From Haliotis cracherodii (lineage: Eukaryota): a stretch of DNA of 64,000 nt. The stretch is taken from positions 12,524,001 through 12,588,000 of the forward strand of contig NW_027266297.1 of NCBI RefSeq assembly GCF_022045235.1, in the 5' to 3' direction. This document shows positions 32,101 through 47,100 of this stretch, piece after piece. The notes under the pieces were generated by a model. That model did not search any database and had not been told where the DNA came from. It worked only from the letters and a program-made list of their open reading frames with translations. The translations under genes and the position numbers were made by a program. How positions within the stretch are numbered: position 1 is the first letter of the stretch; each line of letters opens with the position of its first letter.

Positions 32101-35100
32101 GGTGTTACTTCAGTGTTTCACCATGCCTGCCACACATGCAAACACAAATTGGAACATCTTGAATGTCTGTCTATGTACCCCAACAACAGGATCATTAAAT
32201 CCTTTCTCATGCTATTAACAAATGGTTTGTCAGATTCATTCTCAAACCTCTACAGGTCATTGGATATAGTTCTAATACTGCTGACAGCAGTGTACTCAAC
32301 CTCCACTCACTCAATCCAAATGGCTATATGTCATAAGCACTATATGGTATCTCTGAAGGTACTCACTTCGTCCATCATGAAGTCTTCTTGTTTGAGGACA
32401 AGCTCTGCCTTGATTCTCAGGCCATTCTCAATGTTATATCTCACTGTCTCCGACAAGTGGTCAATGCTGAAAACACAGTCATCATCATCAGTATATAGAT
32501 ACAGGAGATGTGTGTACAATACCCTTGTACTCAATCAGTCATCAACAATACTTCTTGTTTACACTATATTGCTTATTGACCTTGAAGTACTGACAATGAC
32601 AATCAGTTGCAAATGTGATTCCTAAAGTTACCAGTGTGTTCTAACAGCTGCCAGAGTCTTCTAAATGTTGCCATTGTGTTCTAAATTTTGCCATTGTGTT
32701 CTAACAATTGCAAGTGTGTTCTAAAAGTTGCAAGTGTGTTCTAAATGTTGCCATTGTGTTCTAACAGTTGCCAGTGTGTTCTAAATGTTACTGATGTGTT
32801 CTAAATGTTGCCAGTGTGTTCTAAGAATTGCCAGTGTGTTCTAAATGTTGCCAGTGTGTTTTAACAGTTGCCAGTGTGTTCTAAATGTTGCCATCATGTT
32901 CTTACTGTTGCCATTGTGTTCAAACAAATGCCAGTGTGTTCTAAAGTTGCCAGTGTGTTCTAAATGTTGACATTGTATTGTAACAGTTGCCAGTGTATTC
33001 AAACAGTTGCCAGTGTGTTCTAAATGTTGCCACTGTGTTCTAACAGTTGCCAGTGTGTTCTAAATGTTGCTGTCATGTTCTTAATGTTGCCATTGTGTTC
33101 TAACAATTGCCAGTGTGTTCTAAATGTTGCCAGTGCATTCTAAATGTTGCCAGTGTGTTCTAAATGTTGCCAGTGTGTTCTAACAGTTGCCAGTGTTCTA
33201 ACAGTTGCCAGTGTGTTCTAACAGTTGCCAGTGTGTTTGAACAGTTGCCAGTGTGTTCTAACAGGTGCCAGTGAGTTCTAACTGTTGCCAGTGTGTTCTA
33301 AGTAGTAGACAGAGGATAAGTGATAGTATTTTATCAGCATAATAAGCTACAAGTCACAGATAAGTCCTTTGGTTCTTGTAAACTGTTCCTCTATCCTGAT
33401 AAGGTCCTGTCAGGAGTCCTCCATCTGTCTTAGAGCACCGCCAAATATTCAAGTTCCATGAATAGCATATCTTAGCATAAAGTGAACAGTGTTTGCAAAC
33501 ATCACTGTCCAATCAACTGAAGGCATGAGGACCTGTGACCCAGGTATCTGTGTAGATCTCGGGGTACATGCAGCTCTAACATAGGTGTGATGATACCAGA
33601 CTGACCCTCAGTGCAGATGTTTAAATGAAAAGGTTCTGTTTAGTTATTGACAGAAAGGCATACCTTTCCATCTCATAAAGTACTGTCATGAGTCCTCTAT
33701 CTGTTTAGAGCAAGGCCAAATATTCAAGTTCCATGAATAGTATATCTAGATGCATACCTTTCCATCTCCTTGAGGTATCTGGCTCCAAGCCAGTCATTCA
33801 TGTCCTTGAAGGCATTGTCTCCCTTGCCTTTGAGGTCCTGGAGGATGGCAATGCCCAGGACCTTGATGAGATCCAAGCGAACCTTGGCGGCACGCTCTGC
33901 AAGTCAACAGTCAGCCACTCATTATATTGTATACCAGTTGAACAGCCATTAAAACAGACGAGGACAAATACTGATTATACAGTATCAAAATGTGATGTTT
34001 CTTTGGAAATACACCTGAGCCAAATTAACAGAGTGTTACCAGTTTGTCTTCAGTACTGGGATTGACTATGAACTATTTTATATCTCCAACATATCCATAG
34101 ATACACAGACACCATATGCCTTATTACAGGAACAACATACCATAAGTATTTTTTTCAGGCATTGTTTTAATTTTGAAACTGAAGCAAGATCAGTTTATCC
34201 TGAGGCAAATTATTTTAATTAAAGAATAGTCCATTCCAGAATTGAGCACAGATTCTTTGGAGAATATAACACTGAGAAAAAGGAACATTTATTTAGCTCT
34301 TTCTTTTGTGAGACAACAGATCTGTTTGCTTGTTGGTCTGACTAAAGGGGAGATAATCTAGCACATACCTTCCTGTGCAATAGCAAAGTAGTACTCCTCT
34401 CTCATCTTTGCTCTCAATAACTTCTTCTGTCTCTCTTCCTCGCACTCTTCCTCTGTTTCTGTAGGATAGAAAGCATTTTGTCATGACCTGAACAAACTAA
34501 AGATAAATTATTCAACATTTCAACTGCATATTCTCAGAAACTTCATAATTTCAATCCTTCACATAGACCATTAGGCAACAGAACCAGCCTTTTAATGATA
34601 TACTTGACCAATCAGAATCCACCCCTCACATCACTTCCAGCCCTATGATCGAGCCTGGAAATTCCAGCCTAGTTCCACAAGGGTGGAAACTGGACTTTTG
34701 TAGAATTTTCCTATTCGGAATATTCTATAAGTAATACGTTACCACTGTTATACCGAGGCTGTTGTCTCCCACAACTGCTGCTATAGCGAAATCTACCACA
34801 GAGATCTCAATTACCTCATGCAGCACGTGCGTAGCCACCTAGCTGCCATGTGACACCCTTCACTCTTGTCTCTTGCGAGAGCAAGTGCTCGGGTACGGAC
34901 GGGCGGGCAGCAGCCCAGTAGTAACGTATTACTTATAGAATATTCCGAATAGGAAAATTCTACAAATTACATTAAGTAATACGTTACCACTGTTATACCG
35001 AGGCTGACTACCACAGTAGGCGGTGGGGAGCACCTACAACCCGAATCCTGACTGCTAGCGTTCCTTCCGACCAGCGGAAGTAAACACCAAGGCGGAAGCA

Positions 35101-38100
35101 CTCGATGCGCATGCACCTAGCTAGGCGTTACCCTATAGGAATACCAAAGCACTGTCAAGCGCATACCGTAAGGCTCAATCGTCATTGCCAAAACGATTGG
35201 TGACTCCAAACGGCCCCACTGGATAGGTATTTCATCGCCGCAGCGGATGAGAACACTGTATCCGCGTGAGCTTAATCTTAGATCAGGTTAAACAGTCGAA
35301 AAGAGGGAAATTAATTTCATTCAGACCGTATATCCCAGAGCAAGCCTACTTAAAGTATGCATTAGGCGCGTGACCTAATTCCAGTATTTGTAAGCATGCA
35401 TCACAAGGTTGGGATACACGACAGACAATTAAATACATAATTGTCAAAATACAAATAAGGACAAAGCACACAAAAAGCCGCCCTCACCTGTGGTGTGAGT
35501 GCGCTGGTTTGTGGGACCCCAACTCCTGTACCCACGGCAGTGGGAACATTGGAGACGACCCAGATTGACCACCGTGCAAGGTCTGACGCCTGAGGAGTTC
35601 GGAATTGCGCTGGGCACACCCCTTAGGTGCCCGCTTGCGCCGCGATCCGCGGGCCAAGACGGTGCACACTCTCCACGACGGCATCAGCGACCTGTTTGAG
35701 GTAATGATTGGCAAAAACCGAGTCAGAACGCCAGTAACAACCTCGTAATATTCTGCGAACAGAGATATTCGAGTGTAGGGCAAATGTTGCCGCTAGCGCC
35801 CTGATCTCGTGCGGGTTTGACCCCGCTACCGGTAACCCCCGAGACCGGTACGCCAGATTGATGACAGAACGAAGCCACTACGCAATCGAGTTGCGAGTTA
35901 TGTCAACCGTGCGATTAGGGTTACACGATATGAACAGACGGTCACGCCCTTGTCTACGTTCATTCGAAGCCTTAAGATAATACTTAAGGGCCCTAACCGG
36001 ACACAGCGCTCTGTCCTCAGTATCAGCAGGATGTAAGATTTCTTTGAATGATCTTACAGTGAATTCTCTCTCCGTTTGCCCGATTCTCGGCGACGAAGCC
36101 CATGAGCAGGCCCAGGTGGAACGCTCCTTCGTCACCCCTATTGAATCATACCTTGGCGACATCGAGTGCATGAATTTCGGATACACGTGCCGCCGTGGCA
36201 AAGGAGAGGAGAAATGCTGTTTTCCAAGTCACATGCCGGAACGAAGCACTATGCAAGGGTTCATACGGAGCTTCCGTAAGTGATTGCAACACTAGGGAAA
36301 GATCCCAGGCCGGTGCCCGAAGGCGGCCCTTCTTAAGATCGTGCTGTTTGAAACCCTTGATAATACCCCGTATCACCGGCTCTTTGGAGAGACTGGTACC
36401 CATAGCAACGTCCCGTACCGTAGCAACGGACGAGACATAGTTGGCAATGGAACCCCCGGAGAGTTTCCGGGTCTCTCGCAAGTGAGACATGAAACGAGCA
36501 ATATCCTGCACAGATACCTTATCTGGCGAATGAATGTGATGTTTACAACACCACTTCGTGAAAATAACCCAACGTGCATTATACACCTTCTGGGTAGAAT
36601 CACGATGCATACTAACGTATGCCCGAGACGCCCGGCGAGAAAAACCTTTACTCCTCAGACGCTCGGTGACAACATCCACGCGTGCAGATTGAACTGCCCT
36701 GCGTTTGGATGAAGCTGACGGGTGTGAGGGTGGATCAAGAGATCCGGTCTCACAGGCAGTGGAAGTGGCGACTGCGTGACCTGGGTCAGCAAGTCGGGGT
36801 ACCACGATCTGTTCGGCCACATGGGCGCGATCAGTAACATTCGACAGCGAACTCCTCGGAGCCGGCTTAGAATGTGTGGTATCAACGCTGTCGGCGGATA
36901 AGCATAAGCGTCCAAGCCCGTCCAGTCTAACGCGAGAGCATCGTGACCGATGGCCCTCAGGTCCGGGACTGGTGAGACAAACAACGGGAGTTGATTGTTG
37001 AACCGCGTTGCGAACAGGTCGACCATCGGACGACCCAAACGTTCGCACAGCCACTGAAACACTACTGGGTTCAGCATCCACTCTGTGGGGCTCGGATCCT
37101 GAGGCCTCGATAGAGCATCGGTCAGTACGTTCCGCACACCTGGGATGTGACGGGCGCGTATCTGGCACGGGACACTGTCCACCAGAGCGTAAAACTCGAA
37201 CGTGAGATCGAGTAGCGAGTGACTGTGGGTTCCCCCCAGTTTGTTCACATAGGACACTACCGTCGTGTTGTCTGTCGCCAGCATGAGCCGGGCGTCGACG
37301 AGACGATGCTTCCAGTGATTGACTGCGTTGATCACTGCCTTGAACTCGAGACAATTGATGTGAAGACCTAGTTCGTCTACGCACCACAGCCCCGAGCTCA
37401 CCTCCCCCTCTAGATGGGCGCCCCAGCCCACTAGAGAGGCGTCTGTATACAGGTTCAACGTGGCCCGGTAGGGCCGCATAGAGACTCCTGATAAGACATT
37501 GTAAGGGACCGTCCACCACTCCAGATGCGGTCGGAGCCGATCCGGGAGGGCGACGGTCGCACTGTTCACCTCCGTAGCTAACAACTGGATTAAAAACCGT
37601 TGCAGCGGGCGGAGTTGGAGCCGACCCCGTTCGGTGCAGGCCTGGGCTGATACAAGCAGCCCTAACAGCTGTTCCCAAAAGTGAACAGTCTGTTGCACCG
37701 CTAAGACTTTGGCAATCATCGCCTGAATTTTGTGCCACCGGTCTGGGGGGACAAAGAGGCGATGGGACACCGTGTTGAACCGACCTCCGATGAACTGCAA
37801 GTTCTGAGAAGGGGTTAACTCGCTCTTGGGGAGATTGACAATCCACCCCAATTGCTCCAAGAGCCGACGTGCGAAAACGAGATGGCGTGACAGGGTGTCC
37901 GTCATTCGATTTGCTACTAGCGAGTCGTCCAGGTACGCGAAGTACCGGACACCCCTCCGGTGGAGGAACCCCACTATGGGGGTGGTTAACCGGGTGAACA
38001 GCCAGGGAGCGGATGAAAGACCGAATGGGAGTACAACCCATTCGTAGTGCCTGCCTTGAAAGACAAACCTGAGATACTTGTGATGATCCGGGTGAATCGG

Positions 38101-41100
38101 AACATGCAGATAAGCATCCTTCAGGTCGATCGAAGCGAGCCAGTCGGCCGGCATGATCAGTGCTTTCAGGTCCACCAAGCTCAACATTCTGAACTTGGGC
38201 GGCTTGCGCAGGTAGAACTCGTTGAACGATTTCAAGTTGTGAATCATTCTGAGTTCGGCACTGTCCTTCTTGGGAACTAGAAATATCCTGGAGTAAAACC
38301 CCGGTGTTATTTCTGGTAGAGCTAACTCCCGAACTGCCCTCTTCTCCACCAACCTGCCGATGGCATCGGCGAGGAAGGGAAGATCGGTTTCCGAATAGAA
38401 ACCTGCCGACGGGGCAACTGTGAGCGGCGGATTCGCTTTGAGATCGAGCCGATAGCCGTACCGAATCGTGTTGACCACCCACGGGTCGTCGAACACTTGT
38501 TCCCAATTCTCCCAGTAAGTCTGGAGTCTGGCTCCCACTGGGGAAGGAAAGGGGGGCCTGACAGGCTGCGGCAGGCGCAACTGTCCAGGGCCAAGTGACT
38601 CGGGTTCGCCTTAGGGCCAACCGAAGTTGGCGCTGTCGGCATACGAACCCCTCCAATGAGAGTCACCTGGAGGGGCCCTTGCCGTCCTTAGACGACTTGG
38701 GCTTCCCCCAGTTCCCTGTCTTCCCGCGAAAGGGCAGCTGATTGCCCATACCGGAGCCCTCAGGGCGGGGCTACTTCCCAGAGGAAGAAGAACCCGACCC
38801 CTTAGACCTACCGGCCGCAGCACCCTGGGGCGCGCTCCGGTTAGGAGCGGCACCCAGGCGCCTATGCAGGGACCCAACAAGAGCAAGTGTGTGCCGAGAG
38901 TCCTCGGCAACGTACTCCAGGGAAGCATTTAAACTGAGCAGGCAGTAGTAAATGCGCTGGTCACGGTCCGTGGAAGAACCTTCGACCAGACTGGCCGCTG
39001 CAGCCAAGTAAGTGTCTCCGTGAGACATGGAGTGCCGAGCGAGGGCGTCCAGCTGGTGCAAGGTAGCTTGCGTTACCGTAGCAGCCGGTGGGGCACGGAC
39101 ACCCAACCGCTCAACATGGGCCTCCGCGGTAGGACCAGCCTCGGGAAAGGCAAGGTCATGTACCGGGAATAAACCCTTTCTCCACGATGTCGGAGGCAAC
39201 GGGAGACCCCGACCGGAGGCCGCCGCGAAGGCGTTCTCCAAGGAAGGCTTGATACCGCGCAGCAAGGTTGATGCGGGGAAAGCCATGTCGGAAGACTCAT
39301 CGTATACCTCGGAGGAACCCACAGTCGTGGATTCCCCGCGGTACCGGCCGGGGCATGTCCTCAAAGAGGTCATAAACCATGGCCACGCGGTCCTTAACCG
39401 ATAGCGGGAGCAACGGTTCGGGGGAAGGACCGGTGACCACGGGAGCCGCCGCCGTACCGGTGGACCCTGCGTCCGACCCCGCTGCCACCAAAGTGGCCGG
39501 GGACGGAACAGCCAGCGGCCTATCCTGAGATAAGGCCGCCAGCTTGGAGTCCACAAGTTATGCAAGTAATGCAGCGACGGAATCCCCGGACAGCCCACGG
39601 GCCGCCAAGGGATCCGCCGCAGCCGTCGTGGTGGTACCCGCAAGGGGACCCCGACCGGACGAGCCGGCCACCACAGGGGTGGAAACGGACTGCACATACA
39701 GCCGGTAGCGCTCGCTTGCGGCACACCCCGCAGCTCCTGGTTGCGGGGGTAGAGGGGGTGGAGGACGGCGAAACATCCATGTCAGACATTTTGTTTGTAC
39801 TATGAACAAAGAGCAAAACATGGTTACAACACACGCACCACAAATAGTCACAAACGAGTATTTTCACAAGAAAATAAACGAGCAATGGGAATATAGAACA
39901 TACACATATAACATATAGAGGAATAAGTGATGTAAAAAACCCAAGATATACTAGAACAGGGGAACGTAAGACGCAACGTGCATACGAGACACCCCGCAAG
40001 TATAAAGAAAAAAAGGGCGGGAAAAATATTTCCTTTTGGCGGGAAAATATTTCCAAGCGTAGTTACAGCAAACGCCCGTACAAGCACAGTTTATTAGAGA
40101 GAATAAACAGTAATAAATATCACCGAATGGTCGGAGAAACAGGAACGCTTGAGCAGTTTATTGTACGTCTTGCTAGAGCAAGCGAAGAGACAAGAGTGAA
40201 GGGTGTCACATGGCAGCTAGGTGGCTACGCACGTGCTGCATGAGGTAATTGAGATCTCTGTGGTAGATTTCGCTATAGCAGCAGTTGTGGGAGACAACAG
40301 CCTCGGTATAACAGTGGTAACGTATTACTTAATGTAATTTAGTCAGTTAACTCCCTTGCCTCGGGAAGACGCTCAGCCAAAGAATACCTCTACCAGTGGA
40401 CAGATTGCTTCAGGGAAGCGGACAAGGCCTAAATGTGAAACCTAAAACTCAGGTAATAACAAGAGCACATTTTTCTTCAGCATTGAACAGTATTTCAGTT
40501 ATATCATGGCATGTCAGCTTGATTGAGGCAAGGCCAAACTACTGCAGGTCTTACACATTTACTACTTTGGTGAAACCCACCAGCACAGGACATGATGACT
40601 GTGACAAACCATGGGTAATAATCGAGTCATCTGGGATTCGAGCCTCACGATCAACTGATCCTGGCACATCTAAGGGACACAACTCTTCACAGCAAATTGG
40701 GCCTTTGATAAATATAAAGAAAATGGACAGTCATTAAGTAAAGGTGAGAGACATCCACAGTATGCTACTCACGGGGAGGTGGAGTGGGTGCAACATCAGC
40801 CTCCGGTTTCTTCTTGGGAGATGGACTGCGACTCTTGCCGCCCTTCTTTCCTCCTTTCTTAACCTGAGTCTTGGCTTTCTCTTTCTCTCTCTCTCTCTCC
40901 TTCTCCTGCTCCCTCTGTCGTTCTGCTTCTTCCTCTGCCTCACGGGCTGCGAGCTCCAGGGACATCTGTAGAAAGGCAGAACTCTGTCAAAGTATCCAAG
41001 TTAACACACATGTTAGCAAGGATTCTTGGCATCAGTGAACAATGAAATCCAAGTTGTGATGGGATTGATGAGGCAAGTCTCTCCTGTTGGTCAACATTCA

Positions 41101-44100
41101 AGTAATGTTTCAACTGTGCAGTCATTGTGACCACCTGATCTGTGACTGACCTTTGGTTGCTTCCTATGAGTATCCTTGATTATCCAGTGTGTTATATTTC
41201 CATTCTATCAAAATTAATACCCTGGACTCAGTTGTTTACATAGTTTATTCCGAGTCATTCAATTTACAGCAAAACAAGGGCATCCAGTCACATCACACAG
41301 ACGTGATGAGGGAAATGGAGACTTGATCACAATTATACCTTCCTTATACTTGTGAGTTCTGGTATCAATACAGAAGATGTACCCTCCTTTTACTTGTACG
41401 AGTATCTTCTGTATCGATACCATAACTCACAATACAATACTTAGTAACATGACACTAGATGTACAAGAGAATTGGTACACTTTTTAATATTTGATGCGCT
41501 CAAAATCCACTCATTAGGGAAACTTCAGTGTTAACCAAGAAATGTAAAAAGATATTTATGCAAGCGGTCATCCAGAAGTGATGATTTGGTGACTGATGGC
41601 ATGTTGGATGTTTTATAGGTGCTTCCAGCTAATGACGATGTTGCATTCAGATAGTTTGGTGAAACAGTTTCATAGAGTTCAATACTAATACTGAACACAC
41701 TGTCATCCAAATCTCTACAGATCTAGGGCAGTCCTGACATGCTGTATAGTGAGAGTACATAAACTCATGCTCATTACAAATCAAGAAGGAATATGTGAAT
41801 ATCTTATTTTGATACCCACTATAATTTGTTCTACAGTTGACGTGCGAGAGATTTAGTTGTTCTCTCCTAGTGACATTCAGTGCTAAATCAATCAATGTTT
41901 TCATGTTAAAAATGTCTATTTCTTGTGACAAAAATAACAATTATGTGGTGACAGCTTCAATGATAAGTCATTCCTGATATTACTTACTGGCATAATCCCT
42001 GCTGACTGTTGAGAATAACATACATCATCTTACCTCCATGTCAGAATGATGACAACTGATTGGTCTATGTGATCTTGATTACGGAAAATTCTATGTATCC
42101 TGCCTGGGAGGGAAATAAATTTCTGAGCAGGAGAATAAATCCTGTAAACCCCGACACAAAGAAAAAAGGCTGCACATGAATTTCGGAGCGGGAGAAAATC
42201 CTTTTTACCCCACTATGAAGTAAAAAGCTTTGTTAATGGTCGATTTAAAAAGATTTCATGAGAATTAACCAGTGAATGTTGTTTTATTTCAAACATTTTG
42301 AAGGGGGATGGGGGTCGGTATTGTCATATGTTATCACAATTCGGGCTCGTAGATGTTTTTGGTTAATCCCTGTTGACTTTGCCTCAGAATCCTCATTTGG
42401 GTTGCTGAAAATAATCATACTTACAATATGTGAGATGGCAGTTATTCCACTCTGTGCAGCATCAAAGATGAGTTTCTCATCCAGATCAGAAGGGGGGATA
42501 GGACTCTCCACCCCATCGTCTCCGCCCTTTTTACCCCCCTTCTTATCTTTCTTGTCTTTCCCTGGGGTGGTGCCTGGCTTGGCATCAGGGTCTGGTGAGA
42601 TGGGGCGTCGGGGAACAAGGGGGATCCTTGAGGAGGGAAATGGGGAACAATACAGATCAAGCAAAAACAACATGGAGGAAAAAACAAGTCCATTGTTTCT
42701 TTGACTTTCGATGACATGTTTGTTGTGTTAGAAATATCTTCAGTTAACAATTGACTTCAATATTTTTGTGTGTTTATGGAAGTATAGATGTGAAAAATGT
42801 ACACAAAATGTGCAAACTGTTTTTTACATTAATAACTCCCAAAACACAAAACATATTGAAGTAAATTCTTATAAATAAATATGTCAACAATAATAACTTC
42901 ACAGACTGCTTTTTTAATCATTAAAACAAAATAAATGTAGACAATAGAGCAAAATCGATGAGAGAAGAAAACCAAATGCTTAGGTTTTCTAGGTCACTAG
43001 ACATTTACAGACGTTTGCAACATCATTAATCAAAGCAGTATTGGGCAGGTCATCATCACATGAAACAAACATCCCCCCCCCCCCCCCCCGAGATATAACA
43101 TATGTTACAGCACTGTCACAGTCTTGATGATCATAAACGTTGGAAATTAAAAATTAATCATGAACACATGAGTATAGAACCAACTGGCTCCCATGGTGGC
43201 CATGTCTAAAATTTTCAAAGATATTCTGTGAACAATTACAGACATCAATGCTGGGATTATCCCTGCAACGTTTCAGAATCATACACATTGTTGGTTTAGA
43301 GGGGATGTAAGCGTAACTGATAGATGGACTGTGGAAGAAGGACAATGGATGCTGGAAGATGACATCAAAATGTCACCTGTCTGCTCCACCTTCAAATATA
43401 AGTTTCAGAATTACCTCTTCCTTTGTCCATCCCCATCCACTTGAGTTGCTTCTGGAATCACATGCTTCTCCTTTTCTTTCTCCAGGCTCTTACTGCGCTT
43501 CTTGCCGGATGGTGTACGCGATTTGGAGCGTCCGCTGTCTTTCGGCGACTTGGACCGGCTTTCCTTCGGCGACTTGGATCTGTCTCTGGGGGATTTGGCT
43601 CTTGGGGACTTGGTCTTGTCTTTGGGGGATTTGGGTGGTTCCTCCTGTGGTGTGGGTGTGGGCTCACTCCTGTGTTCCTTGTCTGCTGGCGTCTCTGGTC
43701 TCTCAACTGGCATCTGGTGGCAGAAACGTCAGCCATGCATTGTGTTATCTTGGGTGCAAGAGATCTTTATTGAAGGGGTGTATTGGGGCCCTTTGGGAGA
43801 AGGATAGGCGGTGCTGGTTTGGGAGATGAAGGTCAGAGGGTGAAGGCTAGAGGTCAGCTTGTGAAGTTTAGGGGAGGTGAAGGTTGGGGCATGAAAGTTA
43901 GGGGAGGTGAAGGTCAGGGGTGGGAAAGTTAGGGGAGGTGAAGGTCAGGAGGTGATGGTTGGAGTGTAAAGGTGAGGGAGGTGAAGGTCAGGGGTGTAAA
44001 AGTTAGGGGAGGTGAAGGTCATGAGGTAATGGTTGGAGTGTAAAGGTGAGGAAGGTGAAGGTCAGGGGTGTGAAAGTTCGGGGAGATGAAGGTCAGGAGG

Positions 44101-47100
44101 TGATGGTTGGAGTGTAAAGGTGAGGGAGGTGAAGGTCAGGGGATGAAGGGGGGAGTAAGTGTAAAGGTTGGGAGATGAAGGCTCGAGATACAATCGGATA
44201 TCCAGATGATGATTTATATGGGCATATTTTACACACAAAGGATTTGCCCACATGAAGAGAGTTCAACTGTTTATACAATGAGTTCTCACGCTTTACAATT
44301 AAGGTGGAATTGTCATACCTCACGCATAGAGGAAGAGCTAAATGTATGGCTAAAATAGTAACCTAATATGTGAATGGAACTTACCTCAATGAGTGGTATT
44401 CTGGCATAATGGGTGTTGAGCTCGTCAGGGATATGACCGTCCATGCCCCGGTAGTAGTCCTTCAACATCCGTACTGTGTCCTGGTATCTGTCCACCTCAG
44501 ACTGGAAACACATGGAACATTGACAAAAATCACAGGTGTCAAGACGAGCATCTACAGCCATCTTTGGCAAGCAGTTTCCAACTCCATCCTTGTCTGAATG
44601 CATCTTACACACTCATCTGCACTGTTGTAATTATTATTTTTAAAGTGTGCATCATAAACCAGAAAACATTGGGCACTGGTTCCTTTGTTTGTTGCATAAT
44701 GCCCAACTCAGCAATATTCCATGTCCAGTCAAACACCATTGTGTTGAAGAAGAAGGGACCTACGTAAATGCTTACCATTATCCGAGGTTCGATACAACCA
44801 AAAATGATTAATAAAGAAGGAATACATAGGGACCAAGCTTTCACTTCGAGACAACCGTAAGTTTGACAAATCAAGTTTGACACAAAAGTGTTTGACTGTT
44901 TATGACGGCGGTCTATAATAATGGAGTATGAAGCAGACAATCCAGTGATTGACATCATGAGCATCAATCTCGAAAGGTGGGATACAATGACATGCATCAA
45001 CCAAGTCCGTAAAGTAAGTATGACTACACGATCCAGTTAGTTGGCTCCTACGACAAGCATAGACGCCTCTCCTGACAAGCAGGGGTTGTTGAAGGCCAAT
45101 TCTAAACGAGATCTTCACAGGTAGTGGGCACTGGTATCTCAGTGGTTTAAGCGTCACAATCGACTGTACAGAATTGCATCCCTTGGATATGCCAGACACC
45201 TATGTTCAAGGTGTGAATCGCCTTGATTATTTTTCTAGGTTTGTCATACTCCTAATGGTAGGTTTTGCCAAAGCGGTAAATGTCTAACACCGGCATGACT
45301 ATGGGCTTTCCGCACACAAGAAGCTGCCAGGCCATGATGTAACTGAAATACTATAAAAGCCATGTAAAACTCAAGTCACTCCCTCCCTCAATGGGATCAG
45401 TATGACTCCGACTGTGTGACGAACCTGCATGAGAGTGATGTAGTGGTTGCTGAGGACCCCAAGTCTGTCGTCCAGCCAGCTGTCGTTCATGACAGTCTCT
45501 CTCTCCCCCTCAGCCTGCTCCTTCCTCTCATCACAGATGTTCCACAGTCTCTCCCTCAGGTCGTCCACAGTCTGGTGGAGCTCTGCCCGTGTCTCCTCAT
45601 CTTCTCTCATGTCATCGGGCACCTCGTTATACTCCTGTAGTCAGAGCTTACCAGTTAACACTTGCTGTGACAATTGACCAGGATCTATGTATTCAGTACA
45701 AATCTTAAGGAGGGACAAACAAATCATTGATACAATTTTCATCTAACAGGTCTACCCTTTATGATGCCTGAGCTTATGATAACATCAAAAAGTGGGTTAA
45801 TAATAATTTGCAGTTACATGATACCAATGTATAAAACTATGTTTTTTACCGAGAGAAGCTGGAAAAGATTTCTTCGGTCATGAAAAAAATGGACCATTCA
45901 CAGGTAAGACAAGAATTAAAAAGAAGAATGCATTCTACCTGCGACAGAGAGTAAACAAAAACAGATGACTTGGGATGCAGGTTGACACAAGGTTTCTGAA
46001 AAAACAATGCCCACCCCATCCTCTAGATCCGCCAGTGATTATATATAAGCCTGATCACATCTCACCTTTTGCCACTGTGAGATGAATTCCTGCTTGTGGT
46101 CAGGTCTGCGAAGGTATGCCATGTAGTCTTTCCTTTGGGTCAAGATGATCAGAAAAATGAGGAACAGCAGCAAAACATGTGATAAAAATGACTTGATGGA
46201 CCAGTTAAGTCAATCAAAATTACTAAAACATAATTAAAAACTCATAGAAAGTCTATATGAGGGTTTAAACTTGTTCATTTAAGCATTAACAACCGTCACG
46301 GTGATATACATAAACAATGTGTTTCAACCTCATAAATGCTATTGAAGAATTTTAATCTTGCACCGCTGCATGAGCTAATGTCAACCATTTCTTGCACTGC
46401 TGTGTGAAATAGTGTCTACCAATCTTTTCCTGCTGTTTTAGATAATGTCAACAATCTTTCACTGCTGTGTGTGAGATAATGTCAACCACACATTCACTGC
46501 TGTGTGTGTGAAATAGTGTCAACCAAACTTTCACTGCTGTGTGTGAGATAATGTTAACCAATCATTCACTGCTGTGTGTGTGAGATAATGTCAACCAATC
46601 ATTCACTGCTGTGTGTGTGAGATAATGTCAACAATCATTCACTGCTGTGTGTGTGAGATAATGTCAACCACTCATTCACTGCTGTGTGTGTGAGATAATG
46701 TCAACCAATCATTCACTGCTGTGTGTGTGAGATAATGTCAACCACTCATTCACTGCTGTGTGTGTGAGATCATGTCAACCACTCATTCACTGCTGTGTGT
46801 GAGATAATGTCAACAATCATTCACTGCTGCGTGTGTGAGATAATGTCAACCAATCATTCACTGCTGCGTGTGTGAGATAATGTCAACCACTCATTCACTG
46901 CTGTGTGTGTGAGATAATGTCAACCACTCATTCACTGCTGTGTGTGAGATAATGTCAACCACTCATTCACTGCTGTGTGTGTGAGATAATGTCAACAATC
47001 ATTCACTGCTGCGTGTGTGAGATAATGTCAACCACTCATTCACTGCTGTGTGTGTGAGATAATGTCAACCACTCATTCACTGCTGTGTGTGTGAGATAAT

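Follow-up and report, generated by a model that had tools for sequence, protein, structure and literature searches.

A 64,000-nucleotide (nt) stretch of the Haliotis cracherodii genome (assembly GCF_022045235.1, contig NW_027266297.1, positions 12,524,001 to 12,588,000; hereafter the window) houses on its minus strand a 5.6-kb DIRS1-like retrotransposon, running from ∼40340 to 34697. In intact copies of this element, the gag-like open reading frame (ORF) and the tyrosine recombinase (YR) lie in one frame and are split by a single stop codon in the context UGA-C. We conclude that low-level read-through of this gag stop, yielding a Gag-YR fusion, is the best explanation of the arrangement and probably the correct one, judging from the sequences compared here. 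We prefer this reading because of the frame layout, a frame that stays open far beyond chance expectation and offers no usable AUG, a biased choice of stop codon and of the base that follows it (+4), and the loss of splice signals in a sister subfamily. An earlier note on this DNA had proposed Gag-YR read-through at this site; the proposal holds as the best reading for the family and, we infer, for many relatives, but read-through from gag is impossible in the window copy itself.

The proposed mechanism is as follows: a small share of ribosomes would read past the UGA-C, cross ∼660 stop-free codons that overlie the reverse transcriptase (RT), and produce a Gag-recombinase fusion in which the bridge peptide may be a mere linker. 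In the window element's family, a predicted 3' stem would stimulate this read-through. RT would be expressed by a route of its own, whether by frameshifting, at UUU_CG (+1) or at the stop, or by way of an internal AUG or a splice. The window copy belongs to a likely non-autonomous subfamily that inherited the signal, has gag closed ahead of it, and is likely mobilised in trans. A bolder version, which we regard as possible but doubtful, extends the scheme to most DIRS1-like elements: three proteins would be made from one RNA by double recoding at the end of gag, with a +1 shift at UUU_CG giving Gag-RT and a leaky UGA-C or UAG-S giving Gag-recombinase, via a 2-kb overprinted bridge selected only as stop-free, and with a nested stem covering the stop to tune the ratio in the element studied here.

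Intact copies, relatives and the junction stop

The search for copies in the H. cracherodii genome gave 174 candidates, 40 of which were scored, and 63 copies were aligned over the junction. Three subfamilies are apparent: A, which contains the window copy, B and C. The candidate read-through site, TGA-CTC following CCC TCC AGG on the minus strand (38660..38665, with TGA at 38665-38663), is present in the sequence as the earlier note had described it, and the conservation of in-frame UGA-C that would be expected of a functional signal was found: TGA is retained in 61 of the 63 copies over the junction, and in 19 of 20 copies of subfamily C, which is ∼15% away over this region. Subfamily B is younger (0.3-0.5% diverged), and 11 of its 18 fetched copies, chosen as best RT hits, are open throughout on both sides of the TGA. 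Their gag comprises ∼521 codons (499-560 from stop to stop) and ends at TGA-CTC, beyond which 1012-1015 stop-free codons continue in the gag frame, over RT and into the recombinase; the TGA is the sole stop in the combined frame. RT occupies ∼758 codons in the +1 frame and opens 269 nt before the TGA, and the first AUG of the recombinase frame falls ∼20 residues inside the conserved domain.

Subfamily A carries lesions on both sides of this junction. The earlier note had gag ending at the TGA in the window copy, where it actually ends 36 codons earlier, at a TAG (38771..38773, minus strand). This premature TAG occurs in 24 of the 63 aligned copies, all of them in subfamily A, and is a sense codon in B and C. 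Compared with the intact subfamily, all six full subfamily A copies have gag deletions of 101, 6, 2, 9 and 180 nt (the ends of the 101- and 180-nt deletions are not GT-AG), and all six have an 8-nt deletion in YR; divergence within the subfamily is ∼1%. Subfamily A is likely non-autonomous and mobilised in trans, by analogy with truncated DIRS-1, which has been shown to move in trans in work described in PMC7192593. One of its sub-lineages (L015, L019, L022, L023) has an in-frame 222-nt loss inside RT, with the joint at 38013-38238. An AUG at 38749-38747, 24 nt past the premature TAG, opens a 28-codon frame up to the TGA in subfamily A; reinitiation there could still bring ribosomes to the TGA, though YR is broken in this subfamily.

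The RT search returned 719 homologues at E≤1e-20 among 7994 scored, and the RT alignment led to 80 metagenome and 28 genome-collection loci, to which 20 own-genome stretches were added to make 128 loci; the viral contig collection held 1 distant relative. The 28 genome-collection loci are presumably host DNA in bacterial bins. DIRS elements at L131-L153 lie on short contigs of bacterial metagenome-assembled genomes labelled Sedimenticola, Breoghania and Brevinema, presumably as host contamination of these bins. Across the 128 loci, the YR frame is open across RT in 71, has a stop inside in 13, is frame-broken in 7, is cut in 10, and gives no YR hit in 27. The 84 usable loci form 59 families at 75% RT identity, and the YR frame is open across RT in 50 of these. 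When RT was resampled synonymously with its own codon usage, ∼20 stops were expected in the YR frame, with at least 3 in every one of the 200 resamplings per family, and the third frame over RT fits expectation (35.9 stops vs 32.6). Because of this expected number, and because the third frame behaves as expected, we conclude that selection maintains the open YR frame. Conservation of the bridge peptide is slight: between families, the overlap part has a median score of 43 bits, compared with 379 for RT.

In 29 families, chosen because the frame is open and gag is long, gag has at least 400 codons and ends at one stop, 1-166 nt ahead of the RT anchor, beyond which the YR frame is open. These families are far apart, with RT identities of 32-74% (median 40%). 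The junction stop is TGA in 16 families, TAG in 13 and TAA in none, in contrast to the stops at the end of YR, where TAA is found in 10 of 26 (Fisher p 2e-4). The following bases also deviate from local base use: TAG is followed by C or G in 13/13 cases (p 0.001), and TGA by C in 10/16 (p 0.007) and by CT in 7/16 (p 8e-5). UGA-C stands at the junction in 10 of the 29 families and UAG-G in 7, with CUA or CGG after UGA in 2 of the 16 UGA families. These contexts resemble those of type II and type III read-through as set out in passages of PMC3159437. At one locus (L068:1446-6323), gag and YR form one 1626-codon stop-free ORF on a single contig, which may be a natural fusion or a lost stop.

Not all relatives have gag in the YR frame. 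A long upstream ORF is present in 47 families: 31 of them have gag and YR in one frame, 8 have gag in the RT frame, and the other 8 have it in the third frame. Some of the latter two classes may be single-copy indels. In L078, L060, L100, L055, L056, L071, L149 and L080, gag lies in the RT frame across one stop (two in L055), with C or G after TGA/TAG in six of these eight families, and this layout switches several times on the RT tree. The own genome holds a young DIRS family with third-frame gag (L171-L174), in which the RT and YR frames are both open before the gag stop and CCT TTT CGC lies 33 nt ahead of that stop.

The predicted stem and the points against read-through

The earlier note had also described a nested RNA structure around the stop (38591..38670, minus strand), and each of its parts is present in the sequence: an 11-bp outer stem over the stop (38670-38660/38601-38591), a 7-bp inner stem (GGGUUCG, 38650-38644/38608-38602) that begins 12 nt past the UGA, and an apical GCCAAC-UUCG-GUUGGC hairpin (38631-38616). 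In the 80-nt segment of that note, which was hand-trimmed, the nested stem is the minimum free energy (MFE) structure, at -39.5 kcal/mol (z -4.17), and none of 200 shuffles matched its stability. The inner stem has a predicted probability of 0.71-1.00 in A, B and C when folding is started 9-14 nt downstream of the stop's first base, a treatment in which the covered nucleotides mimic a ribosome sitting on the stop; the MFE folds that retain the inner stem also show the apical hairpin. Between B and C, a pair immediately 5' of the stop switches from G-C in B to A-U in C, which is compensatory, two pairs change compatibly, and two outer pairs break; 5 of the 9 unpaired nucleotides between the outer and inner stems differ, and 37 of the 38 paired nucleotides from the UGA onward are unchanged. 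This pattern is consistent with the stem. In the covariation count, 87.9% of cells are paired, the sequences being related. An inner stem of alphavirus type is thus predicted in three subfamilies and one compensatory pair was found among the copies, but covariation overall is not clearly above controls, and the stem is not enriched across families.

Several observations weigh against read-through, or against the part the stem would play in it. Read-through from gag is unusable in the window copy because the TAG at 38773 closes gag first. Subfamilies B and C share 0 YR-frame stops where 2.5 are expected, which is not significant alone (P 0.07). Because gag is in the RT or third frame in 16 of 47 families, DIRS elements can evidently reach YR without an in-frame stop, and one family with third-frame gag has 4 copies in this genome. 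The stop statistics come from families selected as described above, and the context classes were picked after seeing the data. TAG families cluster on the RT tree (7 changes vs 11.2 when shuffled, on a quick tree); the families are therefore not independent, and the p values for stop bias are too small. The definition of a 'leaky' stop is less specific than it appears, because 5 of the 8 third-frame gag stops fit it too. The outer stem has mean pairing probabilities of 0.98, 0.00, 0.73 and 0.22 across four flank contexts, and the MFE fold of 38585-38680 is a different one. The stem region codes in two frames, and its 3' flank is conserved too (11 of 130 nt changed). The covariation signal is weak: among these related sequences, the number of double-change pairs was reached by 171 of 500 shuffles and the covariation score by 10 of 500. 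Compared with control stops, the families show no excess of 3' stems (8 of 29, p 0.81) or of stop pairing (p 0.23), and the fold z-score 3' of the stop is mildly raised, equally so at +250. We therefore reject a general 3' stem or stop-covering stem in DIRS relatives, for want of enrichment over control stops; as a predicted structure, the stem is plausible in the window element's family only.

Other routes to the recombinase and to RT

The alternatives to read-through differ in what they make of the open frame and of the stop itself. The earlier note had raised the possibility that CAG|GT at 38666 acts as a splice donor. Splicing would remove the stop, either from this donor to an acceptor at 38538 or by a long intron that skips RT; we consider it improbable. 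The donor and a pyrimidine-rich acceptor are indeed present in phase in subfamilies A and B, where loss of the intervening 129 nt would remove the stop in frame, but subfamily C has no donor GT in 19 of 20 copies and no acceptor AG in 20 of 20, and the donor is not supported because this subfamily loses it yet keeps the stop (TGA in 19 of 20). Of the 29 families, 7 have a G ahead of the junction stop; the set shows no enrichment of acceptors (p 0.92) and no common intron phase. Scored with a crude matrix, the 150 nt that lead up to the stop are slightly more donor-like than controls (p 0.02). Subfamilies B and C retain a second donor-like site, at 38751; it could join gag to RT in B, but the in-phase acceptor is lost in C. 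No acceptor ahead of the YR domain is shared by more than 5 of 26 families, and a long intron has no need for a frame that is open over RT. No copy lacking the intron was found in the 82 locus records that extend into both flanks, duplicates counted. Among the sequencing runs that contain this stretch, none is recorded as RNA. In contigs of 4 presumed-RNA runs (4 studies) over 35100-40150, none of the 15 joints listed, out of 16, lies at the proposed donor or acceptors and none is GT-AG; such contigs cannot show absence, and this result was not counted. The joint 38013-38238, which is prominent in the contigs of 3 of the 4 runs, was rejected as a splice: it is a genomic deletion, because four own-genome copies carry it. 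Initiation of YR at an internal AUG on a shorter RNA, which would leave the open frame over RT as a relic or by-product, is very improbable in our estimate. It would suit the 7 of 29 families with a Met within 30 codons of the stop, the 9 of 59 families with stops inside the overlap, and the half of the 28 published DIRS1-like elements that are listed without long overlap in passages of PMC3266345. It leaves unexplained, however, why ∼20 stops are expected and none is found in 50 of the 59 families. The first Met of the YR frame ranges from codon 7 to codon 684 across families, with no common column (at most 5 of 26 families per column near the YR domain); it falls within the conserved domain in the window element's family, and one related YR ORF of 994 codons has no Met at all.

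The two remaining alternatives keep the ribosome at the junction. After terminating at the gag stop, ribosomes might begin again close by, with no AUG required, and so produce a free bridge-plus-recombinase and perhaps RT. AUG-independent reinitiation of a similar kind is known for L1 ORF2, and such a route would account both for the YR and RT frames opening at about the gag stop and for the occurrence of gag in any of three phases (31/8/8 of 47); we nevertheless think it unlikely, as it gives no reason for the absence of TAA (0/29), the +4 bias, the excess of in-frame gag or the fused ORF of L068. Entry into YR by frameshifting, with a +1 shift from gag to RT followed by a -1 shift back past the stop, or directly from gag in the other phase classes, appears distinctly unlikely. 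Its appeal lies in the families with off-frame gag and an open YR frame: in 9 of these 10, the YR frame is already open ahead of the gag stop, and all 4 with third-frame gag have TTT_CG in the gag/YR overlap. Yet TTT_CG is also found in 2 of 8 families in which +1 is a dead frame, two rare events would be needed in the window element's family, and the stop bias is left unexplained. No -1 slippery site came up between the stop and the RT anchor, although none was sought. Read-through of the gag stop remains the route that we prefer for the recombinase.

RT probably needs a separate +1 route. Its frame is +1 relative to gag and overlaps the gag tail in all 29 families, and 15 of these have no RT-frame Met before the anchor. 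The openness of the RT frame over the gag tail was rejected as a sign of frameshifting (28 of 29 open vs 26.5 expected); the frame is open because of amino-acid composition. The sequence CCC UUU CGC in the gag frame (38726..38734, minus strand) is a candidate site for a PA-X-like +1 shift from gag to RT. CCC TTT is retained in 62 of the 63 own-genome copies, and TTT CG in most C copies with an altered third base. TTT_CG lies in the gag tail of 12 of the 29 families, where it encodes 12 of 16 FR pairs, compared with 20 of 49 elsewhere (post hoc p 0.02), and FR also belongs to the basic gag tail. A +1 shift at UUU_CG may be offered as a weak lead for RT. Slippage on a homopolymer codon at the stop is not supported (7 of 29 families, p 0.07). 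The earlier note had the RT frame opening after a TAA at 38611, inside the nested structure, and suggested on this ground that the structure might also govern RT expression. This TAA (38611..38613) is a lesion of subfamily A and not a family feature: it occurs in 19 of the 63 copies, each of which also has the gag TAG, and is sense in B and C. The suggestion is not supported, as it rests on a subfamily-specific nonsense codon.

The window element and known systems

By its sequence features, the window element is a DIRS1-like retrotransposon, with inverted terminal repeats (ITRs), an internal complementary region (ICR) with a 3-nt junction, and RT/RNase H and recombinase frames, all on the minus strand. 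The left terminus and its ITR lie at 40185..40340, and the right ITR with the right extension at 34697..34874; the two repeats (40185-40331 and 34728-34874) are 147 nt long and 100% complementary, and their outermost 43 nt match the ICR. The ICR (34916..35006) consists of inverted repeats whose two halves share 3 nt at 34964-34966. The element termini are A-rich on the coding strand, with the start ..ATTACATT, the end ..CTACAA and the ICR junction TTT (window 40340 and 34697; B copies); the DIRS1-like elements tabulated in passages of PMC3266345 have NTT ends, from which the termini here, with approximate boundaries, differ. The gag remnant (38771..39907) has no Pfam match, and neither has the gag of intact copies. 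The intact gag-like ORF (521 codons) has a Cys-rich N-terminus and a basic tail and is named gag by position; the upstream ORFs of relatives show weak blastp likeness to one another.

The RT/RNase H frame, with a methyltransferase (MT)-like tail, spans 36655..38610 and matches RVT_1 (E 1.2e-20) and RT_RNaseH (E 8e-4) in Pfam; the motifs YLDD and DAS..GWG are present. No Pfam match was found for a methyltransferase-like domain after RNase H, and the tail contains DLFA and YAYPP, which we take to be marks of an MT domain. The recombinase-frame ORF (36146..38662) begins with ∼660 poorly conserved stop-free codons overprinted on RT and enters the YR domain at ∼36680, with a Phage_int_SAM_4 match at residues 687-745. 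The earlier note was right that a long ORF continues past the stop with no ATG nearby, its length being 838 codons instead of the 836 given there; the first AUG is codon 208, at 38041. This recombinase is not intact: a stop at 36148 cuts it, and the broken 3' part (35484..36145) has the 8-nt deletion near 36089 and more 1-nt indels. The 1015-codon ORF of intact copies matches Phage_int_SAM_4 (E 1e-4) and Phage_integrase (E 0.0016), although neither match reaches its curated cut-off. At some distance, tandem arrays flank the element (32524-33296, with a 20-nt unit, and 43821-44155, with ∼30/74-nt units). A 147-codon open frame with a lysine/glycine-rich stretch at 42284-42727 (minus strand) is perhaps a host-gene exon whose intron contains the element.

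If the gag stop is truly leaky, this would explain how an AUG-less recombinase frame is translated and why 2 kb of unconserved codons stay stop-free, and it would couple the recombinase to Gag, so that packaging would occur at a low fixed ratio. The annotation of DIRS ORF3 would change, and the elements of animals and other eukaryotes would supply a large natural collection of read-through contexts. The read-through reading pins the question on one codon and ∼100 nt.

Membership in the DIRS1-like group and the long overlap are already known: passages of PMC3266345 describe a 'long ORF overlap' in Dictyostelium DIRS-1 and half of 28 elements. The window element's family resembles these in having gag, RT/RNase H, YR, ITRs, an ICR with a 3-nt junction and a right extension, and in a YR ORF that overlaps pol and has its catalytic domain in the non-overlapping 3' end (PMC3266345). 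These passages deal with the overlap, and not with translation of the YR ORF or with a single in-frame gag stop, and the molluscan elements they cover have no long overlap; the relevant passages of PMC9210276, PMC3783388, PMC5633606, PMC2685390 and PMC6681497 mention overlaps only. We found no description of gag-stop-YR read-through in DIRS in the literature, and the in-frame stop may already be mentioned in older DIRS papers (Goodwin and Poulter 2001, Poulter and Goodwin 2005, Poulter and Butler 2015, Cappello 1985). The present analysis contributes stop statistics across families, the test of splicing and of the stem in a sister subfamily, and the correction on the window copy.

Among known recoding systems, the candidate +1 site resembles that of PA-X, which shifts at UUU_CGN according to passages of PMC3498833: CCC_UUU_CG lies in the gag frame within the gag/RT overlap, and RT is in +1. 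It differs in that the motif is found in only 12 of 29 families, with the post hoc support and the FR-rich setting given above. A leaky-looking gag stop is shared with type III read-through, where the gammaretroviral gag-UAG-G-pol stop is proposed to set the Gag:enzyme ratio (passages of PMC3159437), and with the Candida retrotransposon Tca2, which has a gag-stop-pol layout (PMC2194720). In both of these the in-frame partner is pol, whereas here it is YR. Tca2 calls for caution, since its pol reportedly does not rely on read-through. Type II read-through, in which alphavirus UGA followed by CGG or CUA is stimulated by a 3' stem after an 8-12-nt spacer, shares with the window element's family a UGA-C, an in-frame enzyme downstream, and a stem, here predicted, at a 12-nt spacer like that of Sindbis virus (passages of PMC3159437). 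The strict context of type II differs, as UGA is followed here by CUC and by neither CUA nor CGG (PMC3159437). The stem also differs, being 7 bp plus extensions, with an outer helix that can cover the stop, and is not general in relatives; the product here would be a recombinase reached across a 2-kb overprinted bridge.

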